A DNA stretch of 57,282 nt from a virus (IMGVR_UViG_3300037780_000037:1-57282), one strand, 5' to 3'. Positions 1 through 57,282 are shown, counted from the first letter of the stretch. Notes: generated by a model not told the origin, from the letters alone. Made by a program: numbers and translations.

Positions 1-147
1 ATCAACGGCCCCGCCTTCTTCCCAGGGAATCAACGTAGGGCGTAGCTTGACCGCTCAAGCTGAATGATTACCAGCCGGGGTTATTTATAAGCCGCGAACG
101 AACCCACTCACCCTACCCCCCCCCCCCACCAGAGTGCCCCCTCTACC
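1..147. repeat. Direct terminal repeat, left copy (or circular assembly overlap)
   Basis: Identical to 57137-57282 except for the poly-C tract (12 C here, 11 C there). Confidence 0.95.
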
Positions 148-619
148 TCCTGATGGCGTAACCCCCCACCCCCCGGCATAGTTGACATGTAAAGTATCCC
201 GAGGTAGCCGCAGCCGATACCGCACTTGTCGATCCTACGTACACGTACTATCCCGTTTCAGACCCGCAGCCGATGCTGGACCTGCTCAACCGCCTTCTAG
301 CCGCAGCCGTTCGTTTACCTGCTCTGATGGTTGAGGTGGTCGAGGTGCTGCACTAGTGATGCCGCCGATGCTGGTTCTATTCGTCCGAGTCGATTCCAGC
401 GGTGGGAATCGGTTTCTGTGCATGTCTAGCCCGATTCCCAATAAATTCCAGAATCCCCAAGTCCTTACGTTTCAACGGGTTATGGCTCAATCTTCTCAAA
501 CAATACCGGAAAGCCTATTGCCAACAATACAAGCCGCCGATATCCTGCTGTAGGCAGGACGCCAAAACGGTTGGCGTGGTCGCCTGGTTCGGTTCTCTCT
601 CTCTCTCTAGGTGTTAAAA

Positions 620-1039
620 ATGATTGACGATCAAAATTGCTGGGAACTAGGTTTGGATATGGTCCGCGAAGGGCGGGGCAGTTGGTCACTGTCTGCTAAT
701 TGTAAAGTAGCTTGTGGTTTGCGAGTGTTAGAATGCGTCACTACTGAGTACCAGAGTTGCTTAGATCGTGAATACTTGAAAGAGCTTGTTGATCAAGTCC
801 GCGGTGCTGGCGGTAATCAAGTTGCTCTTGCGTTCTTACGTCGCGTTAGATCGTTGGTCCATCCTTCGATCCGCGTGGGTCAAATTTACGGTCAGCGTGG
901 GAACGGATGCAATATCGAGATCATCGCGTTTGAATCCGATGGTTGGATTCGAGTCGAGTTCGAGGATAACGGTGAAATTTGCCTTTTCCATCGATCCGTA
1001 TTTTTTGACCATTTCCGGGGCGTAGTTTCTCGCGTTTGA
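620..1039 (+). CDS. Hypothetical protein
   Basis: ORF with ATG at 620, followed by a hairpin terminator. Confidence 0.6.
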   Translation: MIDDQNCWELGLDMVREGRGSWSLSANCKVACGLRVLECVTTEYQSCLDREYLKELVDQVRGAGGNQVALAFLRRVRSLVHPSIRVGQIYGQRGNGCNIEIIAFESDGWIRVEFEDNGEICLFHRSVFFDHFRGVVSRV

Positions 1040-1059
1040 ATCGCCGCCAGTCAATTATT

Positions 1060-1090
1060 GCCCCCGGTGCCTCGGTGCTGGGGTTTCTTC
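1060..1090 (+). terminator. Probable intrinsic terminator
   Basis: CCCCGGTGC-ctcg-GTGCTGGGG stem (with G-U pairs), then TTTCTT. Confidence 0.55.
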
Positions 1091-1136
1091 TGATCGTGCT
1101 TTGTTTTTCTCTCCCATTAGTTTTTAAGGTTCTAAA

Positions 1137-2366
1137 ATGTCTATTGCTTCAATCACTGCCGCTGATGTTATCCTGTCCTTGCAAGGTAAGACTCTGACTC
1201 TCGATGCTCCAACCACTTGGACCGTGCCCACTGCGGATTTGTACGTGGTTTGTGAATGGTGGCGATATCATGTCCAAGGCCCTGACCGTGTTAGGTTTCC
1301 CGACGTTCCCGCGATAATGTGGGAAGCTGAGTTAGGCAATCGATTAGAGCAAGCGGGTTATCCGGTTATGATGCGTGCGAGCGGTTGCACCCTGATAAAA
1401 CATGTAGACGGGCTTCCCAAGCCATCAAAGATTGTCGGCAAGTATTTTCACGAATTGCGGCAATTGATCGAGCCCCACTACATTACTCGGCCATTCGATC
1501 GCACTGCTATGGGCTACGCATACGGTGCTGATGCTGTCATGAGTGGTGAGACTGAGAAATTGGTTTTAGGTGGGATCAAGAAAACCAAGGTATCCGATTG
1601 CGTGCTGCACTTTTCGCGGCAGTGGTTCTCTGAGGATGGCATTTATGGCGATGCTGGCTCTTGTTTCTATCCTGGTCGCGACTATGGGCATTGCTCGGAT
1701 GGGATCATCGACAACGGTGGTCTAGTTGTTCGTGTCATTCATCCCGATTATGCCTCCCTGGCTGAATCTTCATATGTCGATGATGACGCGATAGACGAAG
1801 CGGGGGCGGCTTTGGGTCGTTGCTGGTTGATGCCGTGCGATAATGTGGACGGGGTTGTGGTGTGTAATTCGTACAACAAAACTGGTCACGGTTGGCTTAA
1901 TCGTGAAGTTATAGCTAATTGTTTGCGTGATCATATCGTGGAAAAGTTTGGTTGTGATTGGCAAGTGGTAAAAGCTGAATCAGGGGAGGCGTGTGGTTGG
2001 TACGTAAACGGTTCTTCTGGTTTCGTCGTCTCGTCTCATACTCCCCGGTACTTTGATCTACCAGACATTGAAGAAGATAAATCTGTAGAATGCGATTGTT
2101 GCGGCGATAGGTTCGATGATGACGAACTAGAGAGCGTAGCAAGTGGGGAGCGGGTTTGTTCTTCGTGTCTGTCTGATTCGTACTTCCTCTGTGAAGTCTG
2201 CGAGGAATACCACCCAACGGATGAAATGCAAACGGTCTATGATTGGTCTGACGGTATGGAACGGTATGTATGTGATTGCTGCATCTCGAACGATTCGGAT
2301 ATTCAGATGGTGCCCGATTGGATAGGTGGCAGTGAAGGTATTCACTACGTGGACATGAGTCGATAG
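1137..2366 (+). CDS. Hypothetical protein with C-terminal CxxC zinc-ribbon repeats; paralog of 49992-51530
   Basis: CDCC/CSSC/CEVC/CDCC at the C-terminus; shares GDxxSCFYPGR, GRxxxMP and YVN motifs with the 49992 ORF. Confidence 0.8.
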   Translation: MSIASITAADVILSLQGKTLTLDAPTTWTVPTADLYVVCEWWRYHVQGPDRVRFPDVPAIMWEAELGNRLEQAGYPVMMRASGCTLIKHVDGLPKPSKIVGKYFHELRQLIEPHYITRPFDRTAMGYAYGADAVMSGETEKLVLGGIKKTKVSDCVLHFSRQWFSEDGIYGDAGSCFYPGRDYGHCSDGIIDNGGLVVRVIHPDYASLAESSYVDDDAIDEAGAALGRCWLMPCDNVDGVVVCNSYNKTGHGWLNREVIANCLRDHIVEKFGCDWQVVKAESGEACGWYVNGSSGFVVSSHTPRYFDLPDIEEDKSVECDCCGDRFDDDELESVASGERVCSSCLSDSYFLCEVCEEYHPTDEMQTVYDWSDGMERYVCDCCISNDSDIQMVPDWIGGSEGIHYVDMSR

Positions 2367-2383
2367 TTAATTCCATCTCTCCG

Positions 2384-2411
2384 GCCCCTGGTGCTGTACT
2401 GGGGGCATTTG
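2384..2411 (+). terminator. Probable terminator hairpin
   Basis: GCCCCTGGT...ACTGGGGGC followed by ATTT. Confidence 0.45.
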
Positions 2412-2429
2412 TCTTTATGAGGTTTCACT

Positions 2430-4881: not shown

Positions 4882-5496
4882 ATGAGTGAATCAAATGCTG
4901 ATGTACCGTTTTATACATTCGTTGTGTATCAAGACGGGGAGTACGATGTTCGCGGTAAACTGTATATGGGTAAAGAACTGGTAACCGATTTACATTGTAT
5001 CGATTTTAAGAATTTGCTCTCTGATGCTGAAATACACAAACTAGATTTGATGCACGCCCCTAATAACTTTCGCAATAAAGACTGGCTATACTCCCGGTTG
5101 AGAATGCACCCAACTGCTATCAGATCAGGCGGGGTGATTGATAATCAAGGGGTTATTCGCTATCTGAAAAAGCCCCCCTCTTCCCAGGAAACTCAAGGGG
5201 AAAAGCCCAAATCGGATGTAGTGTGTCCTGGTATTGATCAGGTGCCGTTTTGTTTGCTGGAACGGGTAGGTGCTATCTTTGCTGAGGGTGAGGTTAAATA
5301 TGGCAGGGATAACTGGAAGCAGGAACCTGATGATAAGAGTTACGATCAGGAACGTATGCGTCACGCTTTAAGACACCTACATTTGTATGCTGATGGCGAT
5401 AGGGCTGAAGATCATTTGGCTAAGGTTGCTTGGTTTTGTGCTACTACTATGTGGAGAGAAGATGCAAATAATAGCGTTAAACGGGCTCACGATTAA
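4882..5496 (+). CDS. dATP/dGTP diphosphohydrolase domain protein (DUF5664) with N-terminal extension
   Basis: GEVKYGRDNW, RHALRHL and EDHLAKVAW motifs. Confidence 0.8.
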   Translation: MSESNADVPFYTFVVYQDGEYDVRGKLYMGKELVTDLHCIDFKNLLSDAEIHKLDLMHAPNNFRNKDWLYSRLRMHPTAIRSGGVIDNQGVIRYLKKPPSSQETQGEKPKSDVVCPGIDQVPFCLLERVGAIFAEGEVKYGRDNWKQEPDDKSYDQERMRHALRHLHLYADGDRAEDHLAKVAWFCATTMWREDANNSVKRAHD

Positions 5497-5959
5497 ACCT
5501 GCTGTTGATGGTAGGATTGGTTCCTATCTCCCAGGAAGCGTTGAGGTTTATAGGTGGAACTGGAGAGCTAAAGATGTGTGTTGGACCCGTTGGACAATAT
5601 TTACCGAAATTGGTAGCGAACCTTATATCTTGGTTGGCTTTTCTGATGGTGGTACTATGGCTCACCGTGTTGCTCATTTGGACAATCGGTGCATTGGCTT
5701 GGTTGTGCATAGTGGTCTTAGAGCTTCCATACCACGTATACGAGATATACCGACGTTACTGGTGACTACGAATGGGGATAGGACTGGTTGTAGACAAGCG
5801 ACTGAGGATATGTATGATCGTTACACAGGCTATGTTACTAATTTAACTTTGGCTGGTGTACCATTTACTAGACCACATAGTTGGTACGAGCGTTTACTAA
5901 AACATCAATTCCATAACGCCTCTGGATTGATTAATGATTGGATTGCGTTGAACTACTAA
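5462..5959 (+). CDS. Alpha/beta hydrolase (esterase-like)
   Basis: Nucleophile elbow LVGFSDGG; downstream Asp (GDRT) and His candidates. Confidence 0.75.
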   Translation: MQIIALNGLTIKPAVDGRIGSYLPGSVEVYRWNWRAKDVCWTRWTIFTEIGSEPYILVGFSDGGTMAHRVAHLDNRCIGLVVHSGLRASIPRIRDIPTLLVTTNGDRTGCRQATEDMYDRYTGYVTNLTLAGVPFTRPHSWYERLLKHQFHNASGLINDWIALNY

Positions 5960-5968: not shown

Positions 5969-6322
5969 ATGGCTAAAACTAAGAATGATTCACTGTCTTT
6001 AGATGATCTTGATGGTATGGGTTCTCCTGTAGAACCGAATGATATGGAGGCTAGATTACAGAAAATCGAACTGTTTATGAAGCGGTTTGATGGCAGTAAT
6101 ATGAACCTAACAGATAGGCAAGTTGTGTATCATGCTGCTTATGTAGCTATCTTACAAGGGATGTTAAATTTTAATCCTTCTATGCTGAAAAAACCTGATT
6201 TGTTGTATACGTATCTTCGGGACGCCAAAGTTGCTGCCGAAATGGCTTTGGTTGTCCATGATGGAGGTACTAAAGGAGAATTTACTGGCGAGTTTAAGTT
6301 GAGAAGGGAGAAAGGTGAATAA
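5969..6322 (+). CDS. Hypothetical protein
   Basis: 117 aa ORF; TAATG overlap with the next gene. Confidence 0.7.
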   Translation: MAKTKNDSLSLDDLDGMGSPVEPNDMEARLQKIELFMKRFDGSNMNLTDRQVVYHAAYVAILQGMLNFNPSMLKKPDLLYTYLRDAKVAAEMALVVHDGGTKGEFTGEFKLRREKGE

Positions 6323-6903
6323 TGCCTAGACCTAAAAAATATAAGCTAATTGGTGCTTATCTTAGAAAACTTAGGGTGGCTAAAGGTATCGAACGCAATT
6401 GGTTAGCTAAAAAGCTATCCAGAAGCACTTCCGATTTAATGAATATGGAGTTGGGAATTAGGGCTATACCCAATCTTCGTACCTTGAAATCTTGGGTGCA
6501 TTATTTAGATGCTGTCGATAAGTTAGATACTGCGGTTAAACTGTATATGGCTGATGGTCATAAGTTAGAGGTTGATATACGTGCTTTAACCCTGGAAGAA
6601 AGACTTAGATTGGTGGCTATAACCAATGCGTTTAGAGCTAGGAAAGTGCATCCTAACTTGATTGAAGCTATTGATCAAGCGTTGTTTGAAAAACCTGTGA
6701 CAATCCAAAAATCTAAGCACGTAGCTCCAAGCGTGAAGATCGGTGAATCACCAGTTATGACTGAATTTGATTACAATCACACCACGGGAAACGTGGAAAA
6801 TACTAGGGAGTACACCAATGACGAATGGAAAAATCAAGGGCAAAAGGGGGGAGTTGGAGGCAGCAAATGTCTTGGGGACGGTCCTGGGCCTGAAGATGCG
6901 TAG
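6322..6903 (+). CDS. XRE-family HTH DNA-binding protein
   Basis: IGAYLRKLR...LAKKL...S..L.NME.G.R pattern. Confidence 0.75.
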   Translation: MPRPKKYKLIGAYLRKLRVAKGIERNWLAKKLSRSTSDLMNMELGIRAIPNLRTLKSWVHYLDAVDKLDTAVKLYMADGHKLEVDIRALTLEERLRLVAITNAFRARKVHPNLIEAIDQALFEKPVTIQKSKHVAPSVKIGESPVMTEFDYNHTTGNVENTREYTNDEWKNQGQKGGVGGSKCLGDGPGPEDA

Positions 6904-7222: not shown

Positions 7223-7273
7223 TGCTCTCTCCCAGGGAATGGTTTCTTTGGCAATTAAAAGAATACCATAACC

Positions 7274-8809
7274 ATGTTAATAAGTAAGTACGTACCTTCT
7301 AAGTTATTTCCAAAACAGATTGCTGTATCGATGCTTCCACATATGGAGGCTCTTTATGGTGGTCAGGCTGGAGGAGGTAAATCTGAACTATTGCTTGCAT
7401 TAGCTTTGCAGTATGTTCATATTCCTGGCTACTCAGCTATTGTATTCAGGCGTACTTTAACGGATTTGAAACAGCCTGGAGCTTTACTTGATAGGGCTCA
7501 CTCTTGGCTTAGAGGTGCTCCCGGATGTAGGTTTGCTGGTGATGAGCACACATACTATTTTGAAACTCATTGGCCTAATGGTGTTGTAGGACACCCTGCT
7601 AAATTAGCTTTTGGTTACATTGGCGAAGCTAATATACAAACTCGTTACCAATCGGCTGAGTATCAAACAATTCTTTGGGACGAGTTGACTCAGCATGAGG
7701 AGACTAACTATTTATATCTGTTTTCTCGATTGCGTAAGAAGGTATGCCCTGTCCATAAAACAACTAATGACGGCAAACCTAATTACAAATCTGACTGTAT
7801 GTACTGTCAGGTTTACAGTTCCTTACCTTTACGGGTAAGAGGAGCTACTAACCCAGGAGGTATTGGTCACCAGTGGGTAAGAGATAGGTTTCAGATTGAA
7901 CCTGCGGAAAACATACCTATTTATGAGATCAGGGAAGATGATACTAACATTAATTGGATTGGTAAACATCCTGATAGACCTTTTATTCAAGCATCTTACC
8001 GAGACAATCCGCACATTGATCAGGAAGGGTATGCTAAGGCTCTTGATGAATTACCACCTATTGAGAAAGCTCGTCTCAAATATGGTAATTGGGCTGTTAA
8101 TGTTGATGCCAGATTCAAACGTAGATGGGTAAAGCATTATTCAACTAGAGGTGATAGGTACTTTTCCCTGGGAAGAGATGGTGTTGGCAAAGTTGTTGAT
8201 TTCAAAAATGACATTCAACGTACTTTTGTTACCGTTGACCCTGCTGCATCTAAACGCGAGGGTATGACAGAAATGGTGGTTAACAAAGGTAAGGATGCTT
8301 CTTGGACTGTAATTGCTGTTTGGGCCCTTACTAATGACTACCATCTACTGTTGTTAGACGTTATTAGATTTCAAGACGAGATTCCTGCTGTTGTTCAAGC
8401 ATTAGTAGAAGTTAATAAACGATGGCGACCGGCTTATTTTAGAATTGAAGGTAATGGATTGGGTAAAGGTGTTGTTCAATACTCTCAAATATATGGGCTT
8501 ACAGTAAAAGAAGGTAAACGCTATACCGATAAAGTGGTTAATTCCACCGCTGCCCAACTTAGAATGGAACAAGGACGTATTTGGTTTCCTCAGTGGGCTT
8601 CTTGGCTCAAAGATTGGGAAGATGAAATATTTAACTGGACAGGGGATGATACCCAAGCTGATGACCAAGTAGACGTATTAGCAGATGCGGCTCAAGATGT
8701 AGTTTGGGAAGCAGGAGACGACCGAGATAATAAAGAAGAATACACAGGTTCTACAATGGATTACCCTGGTTGGTTTGGTTATGACAGTTTACCTACCTAT
8801 GGTATTTGA
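7274..8809 (+). CDS. terL: Terminase large subunit
   Basis: Walker A GGQAGGGKS, Walker B WDE, GATNPGG, nuclease motifs VDPAAS and DDQVD. Confidence 0.95.
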   Translation: MLISKYVPSKLFPKQIAVSMLPHMEALYGGQAGGGKSELLLALALQYVHIPGYSAIVFRRTLTDLKQPGALLDRAHSWLRGAPGCRFAGDEHTYYFETHWPNGVVGHPAKLAFGYIGEANIQTRYQSAEYQTILWDELTQHEETNYLYLFSRLRKKVCPVHKTTNDGKPNYKSDCMYCQVYSSLPLRVRGATNPGGIGHQWVRDRFQIEPAENIPIYEIREDDTNINWIGKHPDRPFIQASYRDNPHIDQEGYAKALDELPPIEKARLKYGNWAVNVDARFKRRWVKHYSTRGDRYFSLGRDGVGKVVDFKNDIQRTFVTVDPAASKREGMTEMVVNKGKDASWTVIAVWALTNDYHLLLLDVIRFQDEIPAVVQALVEVNKRWRPAYFRIEGNGLGKGVVQYSQIYGLTVKEGKRYTDKVVNSTAAQLRMEQGRIWFPQWASWLKDWEDEIFNWTGDDTQADDQVDVLADAAQDVVWEAGDDRDNKEEYTGSTMDYPGWFGYDSLPTYGI

Positions 8810-46951: not shown

Positions 46952-47027
46952 TCTGCTAGTTTGGCTGAGTAGCACACCTTCTACCCAGTCATGTTTTCCG
47001 TGACCCCTTTAATGAAAGGAGTTTATC

Positions 47028-47528: not shown

Positions 47529-47659
47529 TGCCAAAGAAAACATCATCTAAACCAAAGAACCGCTGTTGGAAAGGATACGAGCCTACTCCTGGCAAAAAAG
47601 CCTACAGTGACGGTTCCTGTCAGAAGGCTAAAAAGTCTAAAAAATCCAACAAGAAGTAG
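47528..47659 (+). CDS. 43-aa basic peptide with CWKGY...GSC motif (not in ORF track)
   Basis: MPKKTSSKPKNRCWKGYEPTPGKKAYSDGSCQKAKKSKKSNKK; translationally coupled on both sides. Confidence 0.65.
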   Translation: MPKKTSSKPKNRCWKGYEPTPGKKAYSDGSCQKAKKSKKSNKK

Positions 47660-47660
47660 C

Positions 47661-49013
47661 ATGGCTAAAAGAACTAAGAAACTTGACCAACTCGAATCGA
47701 CTTCTTCTACGCCCCTTCGATTCGAGTATTTGGACCCAAAGAGCATCAAACTCAACGCTAAAAACTGGCGGGTTCACCCACGACGGCAACGACAAGCCTA
47801 CAACGCATTCAAAAACCAAGTCGGTTGGGCCGGTGCAGTCCTAATCAATGAAACTACAGGGAACCTCCTCGATGGTCACATGCGAGTTGATGAAGCTATC
47901 AAAAACGAAGACCCTTCAGTACCCTGCCTGATAGGCTCCTGGACCGAAGAAAAGGAAAACTTGATTCTCCAGTCGCTTGACCCCCTCGGAACGCTTGCAA
48001 GCACCGATAGAGAGGCCCTAGCAAGCCTTACCGAAGCTAACCGGAAAAAACTCACGGACTTGGGCAACGACCACACCCGCAAACTAGCCCAATTAACCGA
48101 AGACCTGAAAGCCCTATCCCAATCCGAGGAATCCGGTCCTCTACTGAAGCAAACCAAGCCACTACGCAAACCAAAGCCTCTCTCCCAGGAAGACCCTGAT
48201 GAAGAACTAAACAATACTGATAACGATACAGAAGACAATATTGATGTATCGTACCAACCCCCAAAGAACAACAAAGATATTCGGCGGGAGATCATCGAGT
48301 CTGACGTTTTCTTTGCGTCTGATGATTACGCGGTTACTATCCCGCTCCAGTTGCCGACGCTGCTACCCCATATGTTAGCAACGCCTGATATGGCACCACG
48401 TCAGACCTTTAATCGTTCACGATCCCAACAACATACACCGGATACTTATTATTGCATTTCATCGGTACCTTGGCCTGAATCCCGAGATGGTGGCGTATTA
48501 GGTTTCTTCACCGAAGATTACCGATTCAATAACTGTTATGATTTTGCAGCAGACTTCTTAGAAGAAATACTAGACGAAGACTGGACTACAATCTTACTCC
48601 CAGATTATTCATTATACGATCACTACCCACTAGCCATGAAACTATGGAATTTATACCGTAGTCGATGGTGCGGTCGTTATTGGCAAGAAGCAGGTTTTCA
48701 TGTAGTACCTATTATTCAAGGTTGTCAATTAGGTTCTGAATCTGACGCTTCTATGACACGACCCATATGTATAGATACTCTGCCCAATAATACACCAATG
48801 ATTGCTTGTCAAATGAGAAGCACCAAAGGTTATCAAGATTTCTGCGAAGATATTAACTACGCTGTAGAAACTAAAAACATTGAAACGGTTTTAATCTATG
48901 GGGGCCTTGATAGGCAAAAGGTACTTCATGGTTATTTGACAGATAAAGCCGAGATCATATACTTGCCTTCATTCATCAAAGCACGCAAAGAAGTGTTAAA
49001 GAGGGAGAGTTAA
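47661..49013 (+). CDS. ParB-like N-terminal domain fused to DUF4417
   Basis: NWR.H, VG...V..N...G.L.DGH.R; C-terminal FFTEDYRF, PDYSLY and WN.YRSRW.G.YWQ..G..V.P. Confidence 0.85.
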   Translation: MAKRTKKLDQLESTSSTPLRFEYLDPKSIKLNAKNWRVHPRRQRQAYNAFKNQVGWAGAVLINETTGNLLDGHMRVDEAIKNEDPSVPCLIGSWTEEKENLILQSLDPLGTLASTDREALASLTEANRKKLTDLGNDHTRKLAQLTEDLKALSQSEESGPLLKQTKPLRKPKPLSQEDPDEELNNTDNDTEDNIDVSYQPPKNNKDIRREIIESDVFFASDDYAVTIPLQLPTLLPHMLATPDMAPRQTFNRSRSQQHTPDTYYCISSVPWPESRDGGVLGFFTEDYRFNNCYDFAADFLEEILDEDWTTILLPDYSLYDHYPLAMKLWNLYRSRWCGRYWQEAGFHVVPIIQGCQLGSESDASMTRPICIDTLPNNTPMIACQMRSTKGYQDFCEDINYAVETKNIETVLIYGGLDRQKVLHGYLTDKAEIIYLPSFIKARKEVLKRES

Positions 49014-49016
49014 TAA

Positions 49017-49496
49017 ATGGCTCCGCGAAAACCCAGAAAAGTAGGCACGATGAAGGTCGGGAATAAAACAATTCCTGACTATGGTAAAAGGCAAGGTAGG
49101 GGTCGGCTTGGTGGTAATAAATCTACTGATACTGGGGCAAGAGTTGATCCTGTACCTGCGAGAGTTTCACGAAGCAAACCAAAACCTACGGGTGGTAAAA
49201 ACGCTTCTGAAGCCGCTGGACAAAAGAAAGGCACGAAAACGAAATCAGCCCGTAAGGTAGCAACTAAAGCAGCAAAAAAGGCAGGTGGCGGTGCAAAGAA
49301 AGCAGCAACAAGAGCCGAAAGTGCGGCCAAGAAGAAAGCCGCTTCCGAGAGGGCAACTAAAAAAGCCTCAAAGAAGTCCAGCAAAAAAGCTACCACCACC
49401 AGAAAAACCAGCGGCCCCAAACGGAAAGTCAAAACCCCCGGCAAAAGGTCTGTCGGCAGAGTTAAAAATAGAGCTACCCGCAAAAAATATGGATAG
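49017..49496 (+). CDS. Histone H1-like Lys/Ala/Arg-rich protein
   Basis: KKA-rich low-complexity basic sequence. Confidence 0.75.
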   Translation: MAPRKPRKVGTMKVGNKTIPDYGKRQGRGRLGGNKSTDTGARVDPVPARVSRSKPKPTGGKNASEAAGQKKGTKTKSARKVATKAAKKAGGGAKKAATRAESAAKKKAASERATKKASKKSSKKATTTRKTSGPKRKVKTPGKRSVGRVKNRATRKKYG

Positions 49497-49560
49497 CACG
49501 TTCGACTTGGACGATTGTTTATCCAACTTCCATCTCGAATAAATTCCAGGAACCCCAATC

Positions 49561-49722
49561 ATGGCTAAAGGCAAAGGTAAATTAACGCAGGCAGCAAAGA
49601 CCCTCGGATCAGCCGGAGGTAAAAAAGGCGGACCAGCCCGAGCAACAGCCCTTTCAAAATCCCGTCGATCAGCAATCGCAAAACAGGGCGGCAAGGCTAG
49701 ACAGGCCAAGAAAAACGGCTAG
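49561..49722 (+). CDS. 53-aa basic KGG-motif protein (not in ORF track)
   Basis: MAKGKGKLTQAAKTLGSAGGKKGGPARATALSKSRRSAIAKQGGKARQAKKNG; AGGA SD. Confidence 0.7.
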   Translation: MAKGKGKLTQAAKTLGSAGGKKGGPARATALSKSRRSAIAKQGGKARQAKKNG

Positions 49723-49769
49723 AATACATTAGTTGAGTTGGCGCATTCTCTTGGGAGAGGGAATCCGAA

Positions 49770-49805
49770 GCCCCGATATGGTCAAAAGCTGTATCGGGGT
49801 TTTTT
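49770..49805 (+). terminator. Intrinsic terminator
   Basis: CCCCGATATGG...CTGTATCGGGG followed by T6. Confidence 0.85.
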
Positions 49806-49828
49806 CGTAAAAATTCCTAGAAACCCTA

Positions 49829-49857
49829 TTGCAAAGCATAAAACCATCCGATACAAC
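49829..49857 (+). promoter_or_regulatory. Sigma70-like promoter
   Basis: TTGCAA-N17-TACAAC, preceded by AAACCCT as at the 34734 promoter. Confidence 0.6.
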
Positions 49858-49900
49858 CTATAGACAGTTGATGTGACTCCAGCGAGAGTCATTTATCACG

Positions 49901-49953
49901 GGGGCTAGAGGCTGGTGCTTTTCCGGTCCGGGTTCGATTCCCGGTAGCCGCCA
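49901..49953 (+). ncRNA. Minimal D-armless tRNA-like element ending in CCA
   Basis: GGCTA/TAGCC acceptor stem, perfect T arm CCGGG-TTCGATT-CCCGG, one 5-bp/7-nt hairpin, 3' G-CCA. Confidence 0.55.
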
Positions 49954-49991
49954 TTCTGTTAGTTTCGTATCTCTCTCCCAGGAAATTTCTT

Positions 49992-51530
49992 ATGTTACGT
50001 TCAGGACAAGGTGCGTTCGGTTACTTGATAAATAATCTAGTCGATAAAGTATTAGAGTTGGAAACAGATAAGATTACCGTCTTTAAGAATTATCAAAGTT
50101 TCTCGAACATAATGTACGAAATAGCTAGGCATATTAAGGACTATGATTCCTTAAAGCATTCAACCAGCACGCTTGAAGGGTACATCCAACATGAAACTAG
50201 AAAGAATGGCTATGACACGAATGACTTGTTTATTCTGTCAGAAGTAAGTAGGGATAGTAACAGAGACGATAAGTTTTTTCGCACATTAAGTAATGTGCCG
50301 AAACTAGCTACGATGATACGTTCGTATGTCAGTTCTATTCGCAAATGCTTAAATGAAATAATTAACGAAAAAAGACAGGATTACGATGAATTAGAATTTC
50401 AGAAAATTTTGTTCTGTCACATGCAAATTGAAATGTGGTTTTCTCTTATTCGTGATGGTCAAAAAAGCAAAACTACATTCCTGGACAAGTTCCTCGCGGA
50501 AAACATTGGGACCATTCAAAGTACGAAACTAAAGTGTTTGATCACCAACGATTGGCCTAAGTATCGAGGTATGTTTGGTGACCATAATTCTTGTTTCTAC
50601 CCAGGTAGGGAGCACGAAGCTGGGATGCGTGCTGCAATGAGGTTCGGGTACATCGCTAGGTTTTACACTGCTGACGTGTCTAATGATCAGATATTGAGCA
50701 ACCCAGACAATCCGCTGTTAGTTGAAGAACCTCTGGACACGTTGAAGGATTCTAGTCACGATAGAGAGGTTCGAGGTACTGATGGTTGTGCTGGGCGTGT
50801 ATTGATTATGCCTTCAGTAATTACAGAACATTACGCAGACCGATTAATTCCGTTGAATCAACAAGATATCGCAGTTTACAATTGCTATCTTCATGGCAGC
50901 AAATGCCCTTCATTATCGAAGTCTTTAATCGCGGATTGGCTTCGCACTCTTATCCCAGAAAGTTTTAATCACGGTAAAAAAACAATTCAAAGAACAGGAA
51001 ATCTTTACGTCAACAATTCAACTTGTTATGTAGTGTCTTTTACACCTCCGCAGCATGTATCACAAAGGGCTTACGACAAGGGAGTAGTCTACGCAGGTAA
51101 ATATCAAACTGATTTAATCGACGCAGCTTATGAAGTTTTAGATCAGGACGATGATTGGGACGGCTCAGACTTTGACTGGGAAGAATATCTCAATGATTAC
51201 GAAAGCAGTTTAACTGATCTCGCATCAACAGATGAACCACAAGTTACTCAAACAGAGGAACCTTTTTCTGATCAACTGTCGTTACAAAGGGCAAAAAACG
51301 ATTTTGCTAATTCAGTATATCGCGATGTAAGATATGTCATCGGTGATAACCATCAAGAACTGCGAGTACACTTCCTTAATGATACAGACCTATGCGTTCA
51401 TTATGGGGCCGCTCGGATCGGCTTAACCAGAGATTTAATAGCAGCAGGTTGGTTAGGGATGAATCTAACGAACCAAGTTATGTACGTCCGCGAGACTGCT
51501 TACGAAATAAGAAGACGGTTATTGGCCTAA
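49992..51530 (+). CDS. Hypothetical protein; paralog of 1137-2366
   Basis: GDHNSCFYPGR, GRVLIMP, VYNCY and LYVNNS. Confidence 0.8.
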   Translation: MLRSGQGAFGYLINNLVDKVLELETDKITVFKNYQSFSNIMYEIARHIKDYDSLKHSTSTLEGYIQHETRKNGYDTNDLFILSEVSRDSNRDDKFFRTLSNVPKLATMIRSYVSSIRKCLNEIINEKRQDYDELEFQKILFCHMQIEMWFSLIRDGQKSKTTFLDKFLAENIGTIQSTKLKCLITNDWPKYRGMFGDHNSCFYPGREHEAGMRAAMRFGYIARFYTADVSNDQILSNPDNPLLVEEPLDTLKDSSHDREVRGTDGCAGRVLIMPSVITEHYADRLIPLNQQDIAVYNCYLHGSKCPSLSKSLIADWLRTLIPESFNHGKKTIQRTGNLYVNNSTCYVVSFTPPQHVSQRAYDKGVVYAGKYQTDLIDAAYEVLDQDDDWDGSDFDWEEYLNDYESSLTDLASTDEPQVTQTEEPFSDQLSLQRAKNDFANSVYRDVRYVIGDNHQELRVHFLNDTDLCVHYGAARIGLTRDLIAAGWLGMNLTNQVMYVRETAYEIRRRLLA

Positions 51531-51535
51531 AGCCC

Positions 51536-51564
51536 TTGACAAACCCTGCCGATAACCCTACAAT
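51536..51564 (+). promoter_or_regulatory. Sigma70-like promoter
   Basis: TTGACA-N17-TACAAT. Confidence 0.85.
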
Positions 51565-51605
51565 AGAGTTTCATCAGTAAATTCCACTCTCCCCAAGGGA
51601 AACCC

Positions 51606-53093
51606 ATGTTCAACATTTATGACCACGCCGAATCCATTATCCGACGCTGCAACCAGCCCAAAAGCGATCTGCTCGGACACGGCAAGAAAAAAGAAGATTA
51701 CCTGTTCATCCCGTCCAAGTCGCACAAGCCCCGTGCTCTGGCTGTAGCCCACTGCGACACGGTATTCGGGGACATTCCTTCTTCCCAGGAGATGGCTCGC
51801 CGGGAGGCATCAGCCCAAGCAAGTTATCAAGACAAACTCACTAAATTTGAAAATGGTGAGCAGAAGGTTAAGCCTGTTTACTACGCCCCGAGTTTCCTGT
51901 CACCAGCGAGACGTGAAGGCAGTAACAGGATCGTTAGCGGTGCTTTGGACGACCGTTTAGGTGTAGCAATCATCTTAGACATTCTCCCGCATTTTATGCC
52001 TGAGTTTGCTTTCGATATTCTGCTTACTGACGACGAGGAGACCGGAAATTCAACCGCCCGTGACTTCTCTCAGGATTATCTTGCGGGCGGCGAGTGGGGC
52101 GAGTACATCGATAGTCGGTTGCTCAACTACCAGTTCATTTTCGAGTTTGATCGTATGGGTGTTGACGCAGCAACTTACGATTTTGGTAATTCTAAAGCAT
52201 CTAATTTACTTTCCGATACTGGTTGGGAAGAATCACAGGGTTCATTCACTGATATCTGCGATTTAGACTCGTTCGACTTATGGGCTTGTAACTTTGGCTG
52301 TGGTTATCACAATCAGCACACCCGAAGTTGTTCAGTTGATCTACGAGAATTGTACATCAACTTGCTCAAGTTCAGCTATTTTGTAGAAGAATTAGGTGAT
52401 ACGGTTCTGTACAACGAACCCAAACCACGTTATCGGGGCTGGAGTAACGCTTACAACTACAGCAAAAGCAGCAAAGTAGATTCTTATGCTCCTTACGAAA
52501 CTTACGTCGATGATGACGATTACTACAAAGACGAGAAGTACGACAGTTACGTTATCGGGCGACCAAAACCTGCGACACAACCAAGTACAAACAATACCTT
52601 TATTCGGACTACAAATACTGTAGTACAATCAGGTATCAGCTTTTTTCAAGCAGCTATTAAAATTGCTAATCAATTAAAAGTAGCTTATCGTTTAAGTTTA
52701 CTTCATAGTGATCCGGCAACAAAGAAGCTGTATGAAGACAACTTTACTAAAGGGCCTTGTGGTGAGATATTCGTTAAAAATGATCAGTACGACGAATATG
52801 ATGCTGAGTGGCAGGAATACATAAACGCCCTAGCTGAAGCACACCCTAGCATATCTGAACTCATTGACGAGGTTGGATTGGATGAGCCTGATACCGAAGT
52901 TGTTGACGACTCAGTTTTTTATGTTCAAGATGATACCTCCAGGGCTTGGGACGAAACCTGGGATCATTATCGAGATCAGTATGGTGAAGAATCCGATCCA
53001 TATGATGATGACGATGATCAAGCTGTAATTTTCATAGCTGATCCGAAACAAATCGAAGGTGATGATGATGATGAAATCATTACCGCTAAATAA
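51606..53093 (+). CDS. M28/M20-clan zinc peptidase with acidic C-terminal extension
   Basis: AHCDTV, GALDDRLG, DEETG, EFDR.G, GSFTDI and N.G.GYH..HT. Confidence 0.88.
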   Translation: MFNIYDHAESIIRRCNQPKSDLLGHGKKKEDYLFIPSKSHKPRALAVAHCDTVFGDIPSSQEMARREASAQASYQDKLTKFENGEQKVKPVYYAPSFLSPARREGSNRIVSGALDDRLGVAIILDILPHFMPEFAFDILLTDDEETGNSTARDFSQDYLAGGEWGEYIDSRLLNYQFIFEFDRMGVDAATYDFGNSKASNLLSDTGWEESQGSFTDICDLDSFDLWACNFGCGYHNQHTRSCSVDLRELYINLLKFSYFVEELGDTVLYNEPKPRYRGWSNAYNYSKSSKVDSYAPYETYVDDDDYYKDEKYDSYVIGRPKPATQPSTNNTFIRTTNTVVQSGISFFQAAIKIANQLKVAYRLSLLHSDPATKKLYEDNFTKGPCGEIFVKNDQYDEYDAEWQEYINALAEAHPSISELIDEVGLDEPDTEVVDDSVFYVQDDTSRAWDETWDHYRDQYGEESDPYDDDDDQAVIFIADPKQIEGDDDDEIITAK

Positions 53094-53317
53094 CACTACG
53101 AGGGAAAAAGTGGATTCTGAAACAAATTGCACGCAGGTAAGCCGTTCATGGAAAGTCTGGAAGCACGGTCCAAGAAATTACACCGCTAAGCGTGCTGGTG
53201 AACCTGGGTGGCTAGAGCAAACGCGGTTTTATTTTAGCCGCGAATCGCTGGAAGCTGATCTTGGAAAGATGATTTTTGCTGACGAGTTAAAGCGTCAATA
53301 AACCTTTGAGGACTAGA

Positions 53318-53587
53318 ATGGGAAAGTTCAGAAAGAAACCAGTTGAGATTGAAGCGTGGCTATGGGACGAAACAAAAGAGACGTTCGCGATATTGCAAGA
53401 AGCAGGGATGAAATGCGGACATTACGACTCGCACGTCACAGAAAACTTTATCCGGAATATCGGGATAGACACGCTGGAAGGCATGATGAGAGCGGACAAA
53501 GGCGATTGGATTATCAAAGGCATTAAGGGCGAGTTTTACCCGTGTAAGCCTGATATTTTCGCAGCGACATACGATCCGGTTCAGTAG
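53318..53587 (+). CDS. Conserved phage hypothetical protein
   Basis: KFRKKPVEIEA...TLEG.M.A..GDWII.G..GEFYPCKPDIF..TY family motif. Confidence 0.85.
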   Translation: MGKFRKKPVEIEAWLWDETKETFAILQEAGMKCGHYDSHVTENFIRNIGIDTLEGMMRADKGDWIIKGIKGEFYPCKPDIFAATYDPVQ

Positions 53588-53609
53588 TTCAGTTTTTAGT
53601 TTAAGGAAT

Positions 53610-53705
53610 GGGCCGTCTTTGGGTAAGCGTGAGGGTTGTCCCTAAGTCTGGTTAGCAGTCACGAACAGGATAGCTAGTGATCGGGTTCGAGTCCCGAACG
53701 GTCCA
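53610..53705 (+). ncRNA. Non-canonical tRNA-like RNA
   Basis: 7-bp acceptor GGGCCGT/ACGGTCC plus discriminator A; T arm TCGGG-TTCGAGT-CCCGA; no standard D or anticodon arm. Confidence 0.6.
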
Positions 53706-53802
53706 ATGCAGTAATGCCGCGAGATACTGCGATATCAACAATACGCGGGACAGCCGGAGAGACGGCATTTTAACGGTTTAGGTTTTATATCGAGAGAAGA
53801 AA

Positions 53803-53994
53803 ATGAAGGTCTTTAATGCGTTTCAGATTACAGCGGCATTTGTGGCTTGGCCGTTCCTGATCTCTTGGCTTTCGGAAGCCGCATTTCGAGGTGCTTCCGT
53901 GGCATTCTTTGCGGCTTGCGGACTTTACGTTGTGGCATTCTTCGCGATGGTAGCGTCCGTCCATATGTCGATGGCAACGTGGGATAAGTGGTGA
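53803..53994 (+). CDS. Small membrane protein
   Basis: Two hydrophobic helices. Confidence 0.6.
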   Translation: MKVFNAFQITAAFVAWPFLISWLSEAAFRGASVAFFAACGLYVVAFFAMVASVHMSMATWDKW

Positions 53995-53997
53995 TTT

Positions 53998-54216
53998 ATG
54001 GCGAAGCGACTGTGCCCTGTGTGCAGGGTCCAACTTGATCGCGTGCCGCCGTCGAATTGGATGAACTCTGAGCAGTGGGAATCAATGAAAGCGGGCGATT
54101 ACTTTTGTCGAGTTTGTCCCGACAACGGCAGAGGCGGTTCAGGTTTGTGTTATTGGAATGCATCGGAAGTCGATGCAGCAGAGCAGAAGCAAATTGACGC
54201 GATGATGCGTGTTTAG
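53998..54216 (+). CDS. Small zinc-binding hypothetical protein
   Basis: CPVC and CRVC. Confidence 0.6.
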   Translation: MAKRLCPVCRVQLDRVPPSNWMNSEQWESMKAGDYFCRVCPDNGRGGSGLCYWNASEVDAAEQKQIDAMMRV

Positions 54217-54491
54217 TGGCGTATGAAGATATGAGGGAAGAAATGAGATTGGTGAAAAATGAAGACGGAAGTTGGCGAAGCTGGGACAGCTTGCGAGACG
54301 ACGCTACGGATAAAGTTGAGACGATGGAGGTTGTCCCCGTTGATCGGCTAAAAGAACTTGACCAATACTTAATGCAGTCGATAACGGAAGAACGCGGTAA
54401 CGTGGACAGAGGGATTCGCGGAGCTTATCGCGTTGTCGATGCTTTGCGATTTGTTCGCACTAGACTGAATTCTTTGTTTAGCGGCCAATGA
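54216..54491 (+). CDS. Hypothetical protein
   Basis: Coupled ORF. Confidence 0.55.
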   Translation: MAYEDMREEMRLVKNEDGSWRSWDSLRDDATDKVETMEVVPVDRLKELDQYLMQSITEERGNVDRGIRGAYRVVDALRFVRTRLNSLFSGQ

Positions 54492-54527
54492 GATATTGGA
54501 GTCACACCATTTTTAGTCGAGGGGAAG

Positions 54528-54809
54528 ATGAGCAAGCAACAGTTGCATCAAAGTGTTGGGGTCGCTGCCGGTAGCGTCTACGAGCAAAAACGACGAACGC
54601 CCGTTGTTACACTTAGCTTCGTGAAAGACTTTTCGGCATTGGACGACCTAGAAGACGGTCACTACGATCCAGAGGACGGTAGATGGCACAACTTTGCTTT
54701 AACCGTTCGTGCGGCACGGCAAATGATTGCTGATTTAGAGGAAGCTATCGACATTGCGATCAACGAAGGTCAGTTGCCGGAAGGTGCTGACCCTGAAAAG
54801 TGGGAATGA
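54528..54809 (+). CDS. Hypothetical protein
   Basis: GAGGGG SD. Confidence 0.65.
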   Translation: MSKQQLHQSVGVAAGSVYEQKRRTPVVTLSFVKDFSALDDLEDGHYDPEDGRWHNFALTVRAARQMIADLEEAIDIAINEGQLPEGADPEKWE

Positions 54810-54838
54810 AGGTCATATTTACATACTGGGGATAATAG

Positions 54839-55063
54839 ATGACGGTAGATGAAGCGATTGAGCGACTGGAGCAACTGCGTCAGGAACATGGCGGGAGCAC
54901 ACCGTTGTGCGTCGAGAAGGAATCACTAGGATCAGGTAGGGCCAATTTATTTGAGCCCGCCAAAATTGATATCTACAACGCTGTCGAGGTGCCATCCAGA
55001 GACAAGACTCACTGGGTCTGCCTTATGGCCGGAAATAACAAGCAAATTGCGGTTGTGTGGTGA
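54839..55063 (+). CDS. Hypothetical protein
   Basis: MTV.E.IE.L start common in small phage proteins. Confidence 0.65.
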   Translation: MTVDEAIERLEQLRQEHGGSTPLCVEKESLGSGRANLFEPAKIDIYNAVEVPSRDKTHWVCLMAGNNKQIAVVW

Positions 55064-55100
55064 TCCACGTTGACCGTCATAACACTATCGAAGGAATAAC

Positions 55101-55403
55101 ATGCCACTGCGATTGGAGCCAAAGAGACTGCCTTCGCGAATGAAGCACTTGACGCACTCAGACGCATTGCGGTTGCTAGGGAGTGAAGTGTTTATCTACC
55201 GAGAGACGTTTCAGTATGAAGGGCCGGTAGTATTGGATCGTATAACGAAAGCGGGGCATTGTGTAGTACTAAGCAAGTGGCCACTGGAACCCGCGAAGCG
55301 ACCAACGAAGTACATAAACCACAAGCAAGGTGACAGATACCGATCAACGGTCAAGACTTATGCTCTTGCGGTACCAGCGGACTCACCGAGTAACACTAAT
55401 TGA
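55101..55403 (+). CDS. Hypothetical protein
   Basis: AAGGA SD; stop codon abuts the attC-like site. Confidence 0.6.
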   Translation: MPLRLEPKRLPSRMKHLTHSDALRLLGSEVFIYRETFQYEGPVVLDRITKAGHCVVLSKWPLEPAKRPTKYINHKQGDRYRSTVKTYALAVPADSPSNTN

Positions 55404-55406
55404 CGT

Positions 55407-55497
55407 TTAGAACGCTACCAATCACCCGGCCCGCCCCGAGTGATCTTCCATTTCAAACAGACTCGATGGTGGGCTCGGGTGCATTGGTTTGTTCGTG
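55407..55497 (+). mobile_element. Integron attC-like recombination site
   Basis: TTAGAAC...GTTCGTG core sites; imperfect inverted repeat ACCAAT-CACCCG-GCCCGCC / GGTGGGC-T-CGGGTG-C-ATTGGT with two extrahelical bases. Confidence 0.75.
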
Positions 55498-55506
55498 GGT
55501 GCGATT

Positions 55507-55923
55507 ATGAGAGACGTGTGGAACAAAGACCCGGCAGCGTGGGAAGCGTTGACGCTCAATGAGCGACTGGAAGCAATACGCAGGTGGCATTGCACGGGAC
55601 CAAGTGGGCAATGTGCATCGTCGATGAATACTCGCGAAACGCTGAACAGGACGATTCGCGAGGTCCAGCATGAAATGGCGACGGCGAAGAAGCTAAGCTA
55701 TCGCGACGATGAAAGGCTTGGCGAGGCGTTGAGCGTCATGCTTGTGGAGTTGGCAGACGCAAGGGCAGCATGTGCGAGAATGGCGGAAAAACAAGACGAC
55801 GAAGGGATGCGACTGTATCACGAAGGGCAAGCAGACGCGTATCTGATGGTCAAACGTGGTGTGGAAAAACATTTGGCGAAGTTGCCGCAAGCAGAAGACT
55901 GCCGCAGTGTAGGGCCGTTTTAG
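55507..55923 (+). CDS. Hypothetical protein carried on an apparent gene cassette
   Basis: Bounded by GTTCGTGGG (55491) and its reverse complement CCCACGAAC (55927). Confidence 0.6.
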   Translation: MRDVWNKDPAAWEALTLNERLEAIRRWHCTGPSGQCASSMNTRETLNRTIREVQHEMATAKKLSYRDDERLGEALSVMLVELADARAACARMAEKQDDEGMRLYHEGQADAYLMVKRGVEKHLAKLPQAEDCRSVGPF

Positions 55924-56040
55924 TATCCCACGAACGATATTTTCAGGCTGGTTGAATCACACCGAAATTGACGGCCAATACGCGATAGGCGGTGAGAAAT
56001 GGCATTACCAGGAATTAAAACAGCTTAAAAGGAATTAACT

Positions 56041-56268
56041 ATGTTAGTACTAAAAGTGCCAAACCAGAAACATATTTTTATCATAAATAAGGAAACTGGT
56101 GAGCAGATAAAGTTATTAATTAAAAATTCCACACATGCGGGTGTATCAGTATGTATTGAAGCACCCGAAAAATACCGTATATTACGTGAAGCACTTATGT
56201 TAGAAGACAACCCAGGGGAATTTGTTAATGCCAACATTGAGAGAAATAGCAAAAGCAAAATTAATTAA
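56041..56268 (+). CDS. csrA: CsrA/RsmA-like RNA-binding protein
   Basis: MLVL......I.I......I.L......V.V.IEAP....I.RE.L pattern; AAAGGA SD. Confidence 0.7.
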   Translation: MLVLKVPNQKHIFIINKETGEQIKLLIKNSTHAGVSVCIEAPEKYRILREALMLEDNPGEFVNANIERNSKSKIN

Positions 56269-56464
56269 TCAAGCTAAACGCTGTCAATTAATATGCGGCA
56301 GCTTCGATGGTAACTTATGGGTTTGTTTATGTCCTGGACCTGAATCATGCCCATTAACAGCCGAGCAAAGGACCGCTCTCTCCCAGGAAGACGAGGTTCA
56401 ACAACGTATAAAAGAAAACAAATTTCAATATGCAGAGATGATGAATGACCGAACAGATAGTTAA
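56228..56464 (+). CDS. Small Cys-rich hypothetical protein
   Basis: Five Cys; overlaps the end of csrA. Confidence 0.5.
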   Translation: MPTLREIAKAKLINQAKRCQLICGSFDGNLWVCLCPGPESCPLTAEQRTALSQEDEVQQRIKENKFQYAEMMNDRTDS

Positions 56465-56697
56465 TCATTACCAGCCACAGACTATAGCAATGATATACAC
56501 CGTTATCATCTTTGCTCTTGGCTGGGCAGCGGGTGCAGTAACCATTACAGCATTCAGGCATACGTTCATGAGACGTGACAATCATCTTCACCGCTCAAGG
56601 TGAATAAATTCCATAATCCCGGCACTGGTATACGCGAGCATATTACCACCCAAACTGCCACCGATACCAAACCCTCTCCCAACTTTGGAAGCGAAAA

Positions 56698-56970
56698 ATG
56701 GATACTGAACTACGTGATTTTTTAATCGAAAACGGTAGGAAATCTGGCGAGGGTTATTTTGTTAGTTACGAGATTGTAATTTGTACTGGCCCGAAGGGGG
56801 CTGAGTTGGTAGTTGACCATTTCCCAGAGTTGGGTAATCGAATTTGTTTAAGTAGCAGGTCACCCCGATCAGAGTTCAGCGAGCTTCTACTGGCGAACAT
56901 AACAATGCAACAGTTTGTGGCTCTGCTGGCAGCGTTTACCCCAGACTTGCCAAAAACCCCTGAACCATAG
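56698..56970 (+). CDS. Hypothetical protein
   Basis: 90 aa; last ORF before the non-coding terminal region. Confidence 0.6.
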   Translation: MDTELRDFLIENGRKSGEGYFVSYEIVICTGPKGAELVVDHFPELGNRICLSSRSPRSEFSELLLANITMQQFVALLAAFTPDLPKTPEP

Positions 56971-57136
56971 GTATAACAATTGCGGTCTATAGTTAAAAAA
57001 AGACCCACCCACCCCTCTGCTGGTACTGCACGTTAAATAAGGACGCTGTGGTGCCTGCTGAGGGGTTTTCTCGTTTTAGGCTGTGATTACACCAACCCAA
57101 CTCAGAACAACGCACAGACGAGGGCTGAGAGGCTGT

Positions 57137-57282
57137 ATCAACGGCCCCGCCTTCTTCCCAGGGAATCAACGTAGGGCGTAGCTTGACCGCTCAAGCTGAA
57201 TGATTACCAGCCGGGGTTATTTATAAGCCGCGAACGAACCCACTCACCCTACCCCCCCCCCCACCAGAGTGCCCCCTCTACC
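57137..57282. repeat. Direct terminal repeat, right copy
   Basis: ATCAACGGCC...CTCTACC matches 1-147. Confidence 0.95.

Follow-up and report, generated by a model that had tools for sequence, protein, structure and literature searches.

The virus record IMGVR_UViG_3300037780_000037, analysed here over its whole length of 57,282 bp (hereafter the window), carries a short asymmetric motif with the core TCCCAGG, and this motif is a positively selected DNA-level signal that keeps one orientation throughout the genome. What the data establish is a genuine motif under selection at the nucleotide level, linked to a DNA strand and patchily distributed among related phages. As to its function, we tentatively favour the possibility that it works like a Chi site for a helicase–nuclease entering from one end, with localized single-strand nick sites as the main rival.

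Enrichment and form of the motif

The core is present in 25 copies (19 on the + strand and six on the − strand), at exactly the positions and strands listed in an earlier interpretation made without database searches (the sequence-only reading). Dinucleotide shuffling predicted 4.86 copies (s.d. 2.15, largest 9), and 0 of 100 shuffles reached 25. Because the copy at 57156 duplicates the copy at 20 through terminal redundancy, 24 copies are unique (18 + and 6 −). TCCCAGG was also the top enriched + strand 7-mer under an order-3 Markov model (19 versus 2.6 expected), and the 14-mer YTYTYTCCCAGGRA with up to two mismatches matched 30 times compared to 3.9 expected (largest 8). The enrichment over random sequence claimed earlier was therefore reproduced by both shuffling and the Markov model. 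It also survived a codon-aware null, in which proteins and codon usage were fixed and synonymous codons permuted in 500 shuffles; the sequence-only reading had named this as the control that could remove it. On the + strand, 18 copies were found versus 4.02 expected (s.d. 1.44, maximum 8), whereas the six − copies versus 3.31 expected were not significant. The flanked form [CT]3TCCCAGG[AG] gave 14 versus 2.19 on + and 3 versus 0.43 on −. As the excess survives this null on + and is near chance on −, the motif is a + strand feature.

Aligned copies yielded a consensus of approximately CC-T-Y-T-Y-TCCCAGG-R-A-A, in agreement with the pyrimidine run upstream and the purines downstream that had been seen by eye. 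The general form is a G-poor pyrimidine run, CCCAG, G or A, and then purines, amounting to ~12–14 nt in the window phage, with information content limited to about −6 to +9 (6 nt before and 9 nt from the core start). Predicted open reading frames (ORFs) contain 23 of the 25 copies, the other two being intergenic. Among the 13 sense copies, the frame TCC-CAG-G (Ser-Gln) is used seven times and the other two frames three times each, so the earlier statement that several frames and intergenic places are used was borne out. TCCCAGG is absent between 9092 and 20659 and between 52957 and 56381, and the two compositionally foreign blocks described earlier (13052–17960 and 53100–55980) do lack the motif. 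Of the six inverted copies, three are well flanked and fall within the first 9.1 kb of the window (4185, 8167 and 9092); the remaining three (24267, 42682 and 52957) are probably chance copies.

It is extremely unlikely that this pattern arises as a by-product of bias in codons, amino acids or composition, or of the avoidance of head-to-head Type III-like restriction sites. Phage T7 has all of its EcoP15I sites in one orientation, which counts for restriction avoidance, and the Ser-Gln frame accounts for 7 of the 13 sense copies. However, the excess remains with proteins and codon usage fixed, three frames and intergenic places are used, and + copies are conserved beyond their flanks (see below). 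Avoidance accounts for missing − copies but not for a 4- to 10-fold + excess. The by-product reading is thus already largely ruled out by the codon-aware null and by conservation.

Strand orientation and selection in related phages

Motif-rich relatives were reached in two ways. G001 (53.8 kb) and G002 (68.2 kb) were obtained by an exact 14-mer scan of the viral collection, and G010, G011 and G012 were found among 80 loci obtained with an alignment of PolA, the family-A DNA polymerase. CCCAGGA occurs at + to − ratios of 27:1 (G001), 19:2 (G002), 47:9 (G010), 56:6 (G011) and 14:2 (G012), with codon-aware null expectations of 4.0/1.3 for G001 and 5.9/1.3 for G002. The shorter CCCAGG gave 53:13, 66:10 and 26:4 in G010, G011 and G012, respectively, and CCCAGGAA gave 20:0 in G001. 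The relaxed word YYCCCAGRR is polar in G773 (33:7), a close relative of G010, as well as in G774 (17:5) and G776 (14:2); these two and G775 (8:1) have the same architecture with CCCAGA replacing CCCAGG. With its flanks, the motif is nearly strand-exclusive in G001 (20:0), G012 (13:0) and G002 (15:1), the other ratios in the set being 38:4, 28:6 and 17:5. Well-formed copies were also present in a 7-kb relative, whose terminase is 77% identical, and in an 8.6-kb relative, at positions other than those of the window. Mean gaps between copies range from 0.9 to 4.5 kb, with a density of up to one per 0.9 kb. Regular spacing was tested and not found, the copies being spread roughly at random (coefficient of variation 0.68–1.08). 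Few copies are intergenic (2/23, 2/27, 7/53 and 7/66), with no strong intergenic preference. In run X2, short contigs of related phage, mostly <95% alike, were seen in 28 of 30 bins across window positions 34001–54000; a natural variant population therefore exists.

Conservation of individual sites, which the sequence-only reading had proposed as a check, was assessed between G010 and G011 (72% identical over 27 kb). Intact + copies numbered 12/25 and, reciprocally, 12/32, compared to 4–5% expected from flank identity, while intact − copies numbered 1/7 and 1/5 and a near-motif control was intact in 0/10 and 0/8. An earlier comparison had given 8/14 versus 1/5 intact. Between G010 and G773 (94% identity), 25/32 and 24/29 copies were intact versus 58–59% expected. 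Many copies lie in unalignable DNA, indicating that sites are gained as well as kept. The use of all frames, the survival of the excess under the codon-aware null and a conservation of copies exceeding that of their flanks show that the nucleic acid is under selection, as had been proposed, and this selection is purifying on + copies only.

Whether that nucleic acid is DNA or RNA bears on the reading of the motif as an mRNA element (a CsrA-like site, a processing site or an anti-termination signal) that appears strand-biased only because nearly all genes are co-directional. In the window, 67 of 74 predicted genes are on +, and some copies lie 7–18 nt 5′ of start codons, where AGGA could be used as a Shine-Dalgarno sequence. 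Minus-strand genes argue otherwise. The minus-strand helicase gene of the window contains one + oriented copy, a block of five minus-strand ORFs in G002 contains two, and a 5-kb minus-strand block round the helicase homologue of G776 has + copies at 5155, 5814, 8858 and 9880 with no − copy. The predicted minus ORFs of four genomes, 15.7 kb in all, hold 12 + oriented copies versus one − oriented, a count in which many ORFs are predicted only and two of those in the window are doubtful, the helicase genes and the G776 block being verified. The retention of + orientation inside minus-strand gene blocks argues for a DNA-level signal rather than an mRNA one. The variant CCCAGAGAA, moreover, contains no GGA, the core of CsrA targets; no Rfam family matched, and there was no conserved structure context outside −6 to +9. 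The earlier suggestion of a CsrA or other RNA element did not stand, and we regard an mRNA element as very unlikely; that the signal resides on DNA is, in our judgement, likely.

Sites for a phage-encoded DNA-binding protein, such as stoperators for an XRE protein, loading sites for a ParB-like protein or sites for another genome-coating protein, are also distinctly unlikely. In form, the motif resembles the stoperators of Cluster A mycobacteriophages, of which the part of the source available (PMC9283540) describes more than 20 asymmetric ~13-bp sites genome-wide in uniform orientation. The window encodes both an XRE protein and a ParB-like/DUF4417 protein, and a 950-bp non-coding array of motif-like units stands at the right end of G010. 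On the other hand, stoperators lie in promoters or short intergenic spaces and their orientation follows transcription, according to the same partial source (PMC9283540), whereas 23/25 copies here are in ORFs, orientation is kept in minus blocks regardless of local gene direction and no shared repressor gene was found. Neither a general placement in promoters or intergenic spaces, nor an orientation that follows transcription, nor a cognate repressor in every genome was seen. By BLASTP, the XRE protein (6322–6903) has no homologue in G001 or G002, and neither has the ParB-like/DUF4417 protein (47607–49013), although a ParB-family gene would be expected wherever parS sites are; an XRE or DUF4417 homologue is likewise absent from G010 and G011, and DUF4417 was present in one of five other motif-rich records. 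The two assignments offered by the sequence-only reading, a stoperator for the XRE protein and a parS-like site for ParB-DUF4417, are therefore disfavoured, while its more general idea of an oriented signal is supported, with the excess on + only.

The array in G010 (the record of locus L275) is C/T-rich and covers ~51,400–52,350 in PolA orientation (~950 bp). It consists of short units (GCTCTT, CTTCC and GAGCTC) and holds seven CCCAGG/CCTGGG cores, all after pyrimidine runs on the same strand. It adjoins an ORF of 457 aa that is common to G001, G002, G011 and G773.

Candidate readers of the motif

PolA and primase trees placed the motif-rich genomes in three supported clades (the window with six loci, G001 with G010 and G011, and G002), and motif-poor relatives sit between them, several without any CCCAGG or CCTGGG in 15–22 kb. 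Such a patchy spread, with rich clades separated by poor ones, is consistent with a determinant that lies outside the phage lineage, for example in the host. No accessory gene was found to track the motif: motif-rich genomes shared nothing beyond the common replication module in BLASTP and hidden Markov model (HMM) searches, to which remote homology may be invisible. Between the window and G001 or G002, only the helicase, UDG-like, nuclease, AAA_24, PolA and primase genes are common (BLASTP, 20–35% identity). The PolA relatives with zero CCCAGG/CCTGGG in 6–22 kb were L257, L258, L260–L262, L265, L266, L268, L291, L294, L297, L298, L312 and L315; these loci may be avoiding CCWGG-type restriction sites, contrasting with the enrichment in sister lineages.

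In the Chi-like reading, we infer both the enzyme that reads the motif and the consequence of reading. A helicase–nuclease of the RecBCD or AddAB kind, probably that of the host, would enter linear or concatemeric phage DNA at a single exposed double-strand end. On meeting the motif in the right orientation, the enzyme would cease degradation and switch to recombination, so that many copies in the same orientation would protect the genome and feed recombination-dependent replication. Like Chi, the motif is a short, asymmetric and over-represented word with nearly all copies in one orientation. The + excess and polarity in the window and its relatives, together with the empty foreign blocks, support this reading, as do the purifying selection on + copies, the use of all three frames and the + orientation retained within minus-strand genes. 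The three well-formed inverted copies, all in the leftmost 9.1 kb, are what protecting the other end would need, an observation made post hoc.

The closest precedent is the Chi-rich lambdoid phages (Zheng et al. 2025, PMC12315714, consulted in part), in which a short asymmetric word likewise occurs about once per 1–3 kb and inside genes. As given in that part, E. coli phage LLS has 23 Chi sites, 20 of them in the active orientation; all 32 Pseudomonas Chi sites of P. aeruginosa phage MD8 point the same way; and 62 lambdoid phages have at least eight Chi sites. The orientation ratios of 20:3 (LLS) and 32:0 (MD8) compare with 18:6, 27:1 and 56:6 here. It is this precedent of Chi-rich genomes with one orientation, combined with the patchiness, that leads us to favour a Chi-like site, as a possibility held tentatively. 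The differences are several. The lambdoid word is the known Chi of an identified host whose chromosome is enriched in it, whereas no enriched bacterial genome was found here among those sampled; the pyrimidine flank of the motif is longer and degenerate. Lambdoid Chi sites pile up near one end, and abundant Chi accompanies the absence of a recombination module, a tendency rather than a defining property (PMC12315714).

Several results weigh against a Chi-like site. The copies are dispersed roughly at random, with no pile-up at one end. A PD-(D/E)XK nuclease and an annealase-like AAA_24/Sak4-like gene are present, so that a recombination module is not simply missing. All motif-rich contigs found share the same replication module, making a lineage-encoded reader possible, and no unrelated motif-rich phage was among the matches listed in three exact 14-mer scans of the viral collection (115, 118 and 104 stretches). 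Finally, no host was identified, and no motif-enriched bacterial genome was found among ~900 sampled (301 Bacteroidota, 301 Pseudomonadota, 151 Cyanobacteriota and 151 Actinomycetota, the last including seven unpublished genomes, G896, G777, G824, G794, G924, G858 and G864, that enter only this negative count). The exact 14-mer gave 120 matches in genome contigs, all single and none locally motif-rich. YYCCCAGGAA reaches at most ~35–50 per Mb in the sampled genomes versus, by rough estimate, 150–600 per Mb in the phages; the shorter CCCAGGAA reaches 137 per Mb in Bacteroidota. Two genomes examined in sequence (G260 and G768) showed neither excess nor polarity.

Both of these had been candidates. 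The Bacteroidota genome G260 was rejected as a polar host, as its 100/100 + strand CCCAGGA over 1.6 Mb reflected forward matches being listed first; twenty 20-kb samples contained both orientations whatever the sign of GC skew, with 44 copies observed versus 50 expected. The best cyanobacterium, G768, was rejected on mixed orientation within contigs, dominance of GCGATCGC and a CCCAGGA count of 119 versus 91 expected; GCGATCGC is absent from all six phage genomes. High motif-to-control ratios were no evidence of enrichment, because the control, the reversed word AAGGACCC(YY), is very scarce in many Bacteroidota and Cyanobacteriota genomes, often with 0–5 copies per genome, a depletion probably owing to the GGWCC that it contains. 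Shine-Dalgarno-like words stand 5′ of 45–72% of phage ORFs compared to 15–19% of random 17-mers, which argues against Bacteroidota hosts. Literature searches found nothing on the motif, nor on Chi or KOPS in the candidate host phyla.

KOPS (FtsK) and SRS (SpoIIIE) are chromosomal polar motifs of bacterial replichores that switch orientation at dif, and why a lytic phage should enrich motifs of this type is not apparent to us. The likeness is that they are polar, purine/pyrimidine-rich 7–8-mers read directionally by a translocase (for KOPS, PMC13342612, of which a part was available). They are features of replichores, whereas no host chromosome with a polarised motif was found here.

The main rival to the Chi-like reading takes the copies for localized single-strand nick sites like those of T5, phiKMV and tf, where a phage nickase would cut mature DNA on the + strand or on its complement; the strand-displacing family-A polymerase and the UvrD-like helicase might then enter the DNA at these nicks. 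We consider this possible but doubtful. Like the phages here, every nick-bearing phage group known to us uses a family-A polymerase, and this counts for nick sites, as do the near strand-exclusivity of the flanked motif on one strand and the partial conservation of its positions. The precedent is phage tf, whose description (PMC3517423, seen in part) gives 14 TACT/RTGMC copies, all of which share a strand in a genome whose genes form two convergent sets, and 8–9 such sites at similar places in its relatives. More broadly, the nick sites of tf/LUZ24-like, phiKMV-like and T5 phages, as covered in that part, resemble the motif in their one-strand consensus regardless of gene direction, their several to many copies and their variants among relatives (PMC3517423). 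Numbers set them apart: the known systems have 4–14 major sites in the portion of the source at hand, whereas the sites here, known from sequence, number 18–66, with up to 56–66 copies per 50 kb, and no candidate nickase gene co-occurs with them. No gene is common to all motif-rich genomes yet absent from motif-poor relatives, and an HMM search found no counterpart of the 457-aa protein beside the G010 array in the window, G012 or G776. Positional turnover in the window clade is fast, and the three motif-bearing clades are separated by motif-poor ones, which also speaks against nick sites. Comparison of the window with assembled contigs of runs X1, a possible source of this DNA, and X2, in which read starts are not visible, gave no starts or ends, and nothing at motif sites among the 40 listed of 1014 differences.

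Alternatively, the motif could be a replication signal read by the shared module, for example a start site for a DnaG-type primase on the lagging-strand template, which we regard as unlikely. The complement of the core contains CTG, the primer would read AGGRAA, and unidirectional forks would explain polarity. A CHC2-Toprim primase, PolA and helicase are common to all motif-rich genomes, the core CCCAG (complement CTGGG) is invariant in both CCCAGG and CCCAGA variants, and the mean gap of 0.9–4.5 kb falls within the range of Okazaki fragments. Against this, the primase tree fails to separate motif-rich from motif-poor phages, the spacing is irregular and the implied fork direction opposes transcription. 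We also know of no precedent, as known DnaG-type primases need only trinucleotides. A combined form, in which the conserved replication/recombination module of the group reads an 8–12-nt nick or priming site that starts strand-displacement or lagging-strand synthesis about once per 1–3 kb, with CCCAGG and CCCAGA having co-evolved with their reader, is rather doubtful and would have no described counterpart.

Under any of these readings, strong selection favours a directional DNA word that exists in two allelic forms and recurs, at up to one copy per 0.9 kb, in several lineages of distantly related phages, and the question can be tested directly given the host or virion DNA. Should the motif prove to be the Chi-like word of the host, uncultured freshwater phages could be assigned to a host group by sequence, and the control sequence of the host break-repair enzyme, which is known for only a few bacteria, would be identified. 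If the copies are nick or priming sites, they would add to a class of phage genome features that is poorly understood, or constitute a new class.

Motif copies, gene content and minor features

The window is a complete-looking IMG/VR record with 57,136 unique bases. Bases 1–146 occur again at 57137–57282 (146/145 bp), differing by one C in a poly-C run of 11–12. As the ends are repeated, the window is terminally redundant or circularly assembled; the redundancy, which is non-coding and contains one motif copy, could reflect either a genuine direct terminal repeat or overlap in the assembly. Individual copies of the motif are collected in Table 1.

Table 1. Copies of the TCCCAGG motif and of a second repeated word in the window.
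Feature	Position	Strand	Context
Motif copy CTTCTTCCCAGGGA	15–28	+	Non-coding terminal redundancy
Motif copy	5177–5190	+	Within ORF 4882–5496 (MazZ-like domain protein)
Motif copy	5524–5537	+	In ORF
Motif copy CTCTCTCCCAGGGA	7225–7238	+	36 nt 5′ of terminase gene start (7274)
Motif copy	20654–20667	+	ORF 20608–21054
Motif copy	22318–22331	+	Tape-measure-like ORF
Motif copy	27504–27517	+	3′ end of ORF 26303–27547
Motif copy	30349–30362	+	ORF 29920–30684
Motif copy	34603–34616	+	Antisense inside minus-strand UvrD-like helicase gene (33079–34761)
Motif copy	37609–37622	+	AAA_24/Sak4-like ORF
Motif copy CTCTCTCCCAGGAA	39294–39307	+	7 nt 5′ of in-frame ATG (39313), PolA gene
Motif copy	42070–42083	+	Primase ORF
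Motif copy	42782–42795	+	ORF 42525–44012
Motif copy	45845–45858	+	ORF 45131–46063
Motif copy CTCTCTCCCAGGAA	48178–48191	+	ParB-like/DUF4417 ORF
Motif copy CTCTCTCCCAGGAA	49971–49984	+	Intergenic, 9 nt 5′ of start at 49992
Motif copy	51778–51791	+	ORF 51606–53093
Motif copy CTCTCTCCCAGGAA	56376–56389	+	+ ORF 56222–56464, reads ..LSQED..
Motif copy	57151–57164	+	Duplicate of the 15–28 copy (terminal redundancy)
Inverted copy, full flank TCTTCTCCCAGGAA	4183–4196	−	
Inverted copy, full flank TCTCTTCCCAGGGA	8165–8178	−	
Inverted copy, partial flank CTTACTCCCAGGAC	9090–9103	−	
Core only, flank unmatched, probably chance	24267–24273	−	
Core only, probably chance	42682–42688	−	
Core only, probably chance	52957–52963	−	
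Second word ATAAATTCCA, exact copies	441, 12645, 20495(−), 20525, 27544, 48645(−), 49539, 56604		

The second word in Table 1 has eight exact copies and 20 within one mismatch, compared to 6.2 expected. Its exact copies lie mostly at gene boundaries or in non-coding gaps and include an inverted pair (20495/20525), making it a better promoter or operator candidate than the CCCAGG motif.

Genes run rightward for the most part. Recognised structural and packaging genes encode the large terminase, a decoration protein, the major head protein and tape-measure-like and portal-like proteins. Those for replication and repair encode the UvrD-like helicase, a UDG-family protein, the PD-(D/E)XK nuclease, the AAA_24/Sak4-like protein, PolA, the CHC2-Toprim primase and the ParB-like/DUF4417 ‘nuclease’, and others the XRE-type HTH protein, the MazZ-like domain protein and an FkbM-type methyltransferase. 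The MazZ-like ORF (4882–5496) has a dATP/dGTP diphosphohydrolase N-terminal domain (PF18909, E 2.4e-11) and may be linked to DNA modification or to manipulation of the nucleotide pool; the large ORFs neighbouring it gave no other recognisable family. A look-alike search with a 1078-aa protein returned LamG-type leads only, and no tRNA was found in the window. A DNA search gave no match and no close cultured relative was found, the terminase and PolA being <60% identical to those of any phage record.

Other polar 7-mers in the PolA relatives were rejected as dispersed motifs, being tandem repeats or local clusters. At L280:1–2500, fourteen same-strand AGTCGAG copies fall within 2.4 kb, often as GGC-AGTCGAG-G, forming an iteron-like cluster. 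L257 and L271 have a dispersed, non-polar excess of the palindrome-like word TGATATA/TATATCA (26:27 in 22 kb and 41:41 in 20.5 kb, respectively). The terminase gene of L193 (2466–3529) is interrupted by ~1 kb that is not present in the window or L009 and that could be an intein, an intron or an inserted gene. In the window itself, a (CT)n run, TTCTCTCTCTCTCTCTCTAGG, at 590–612 directly 5′ of the ORF starting at 611 is like the pyrimidine arm of the motif but ends in TAGG.

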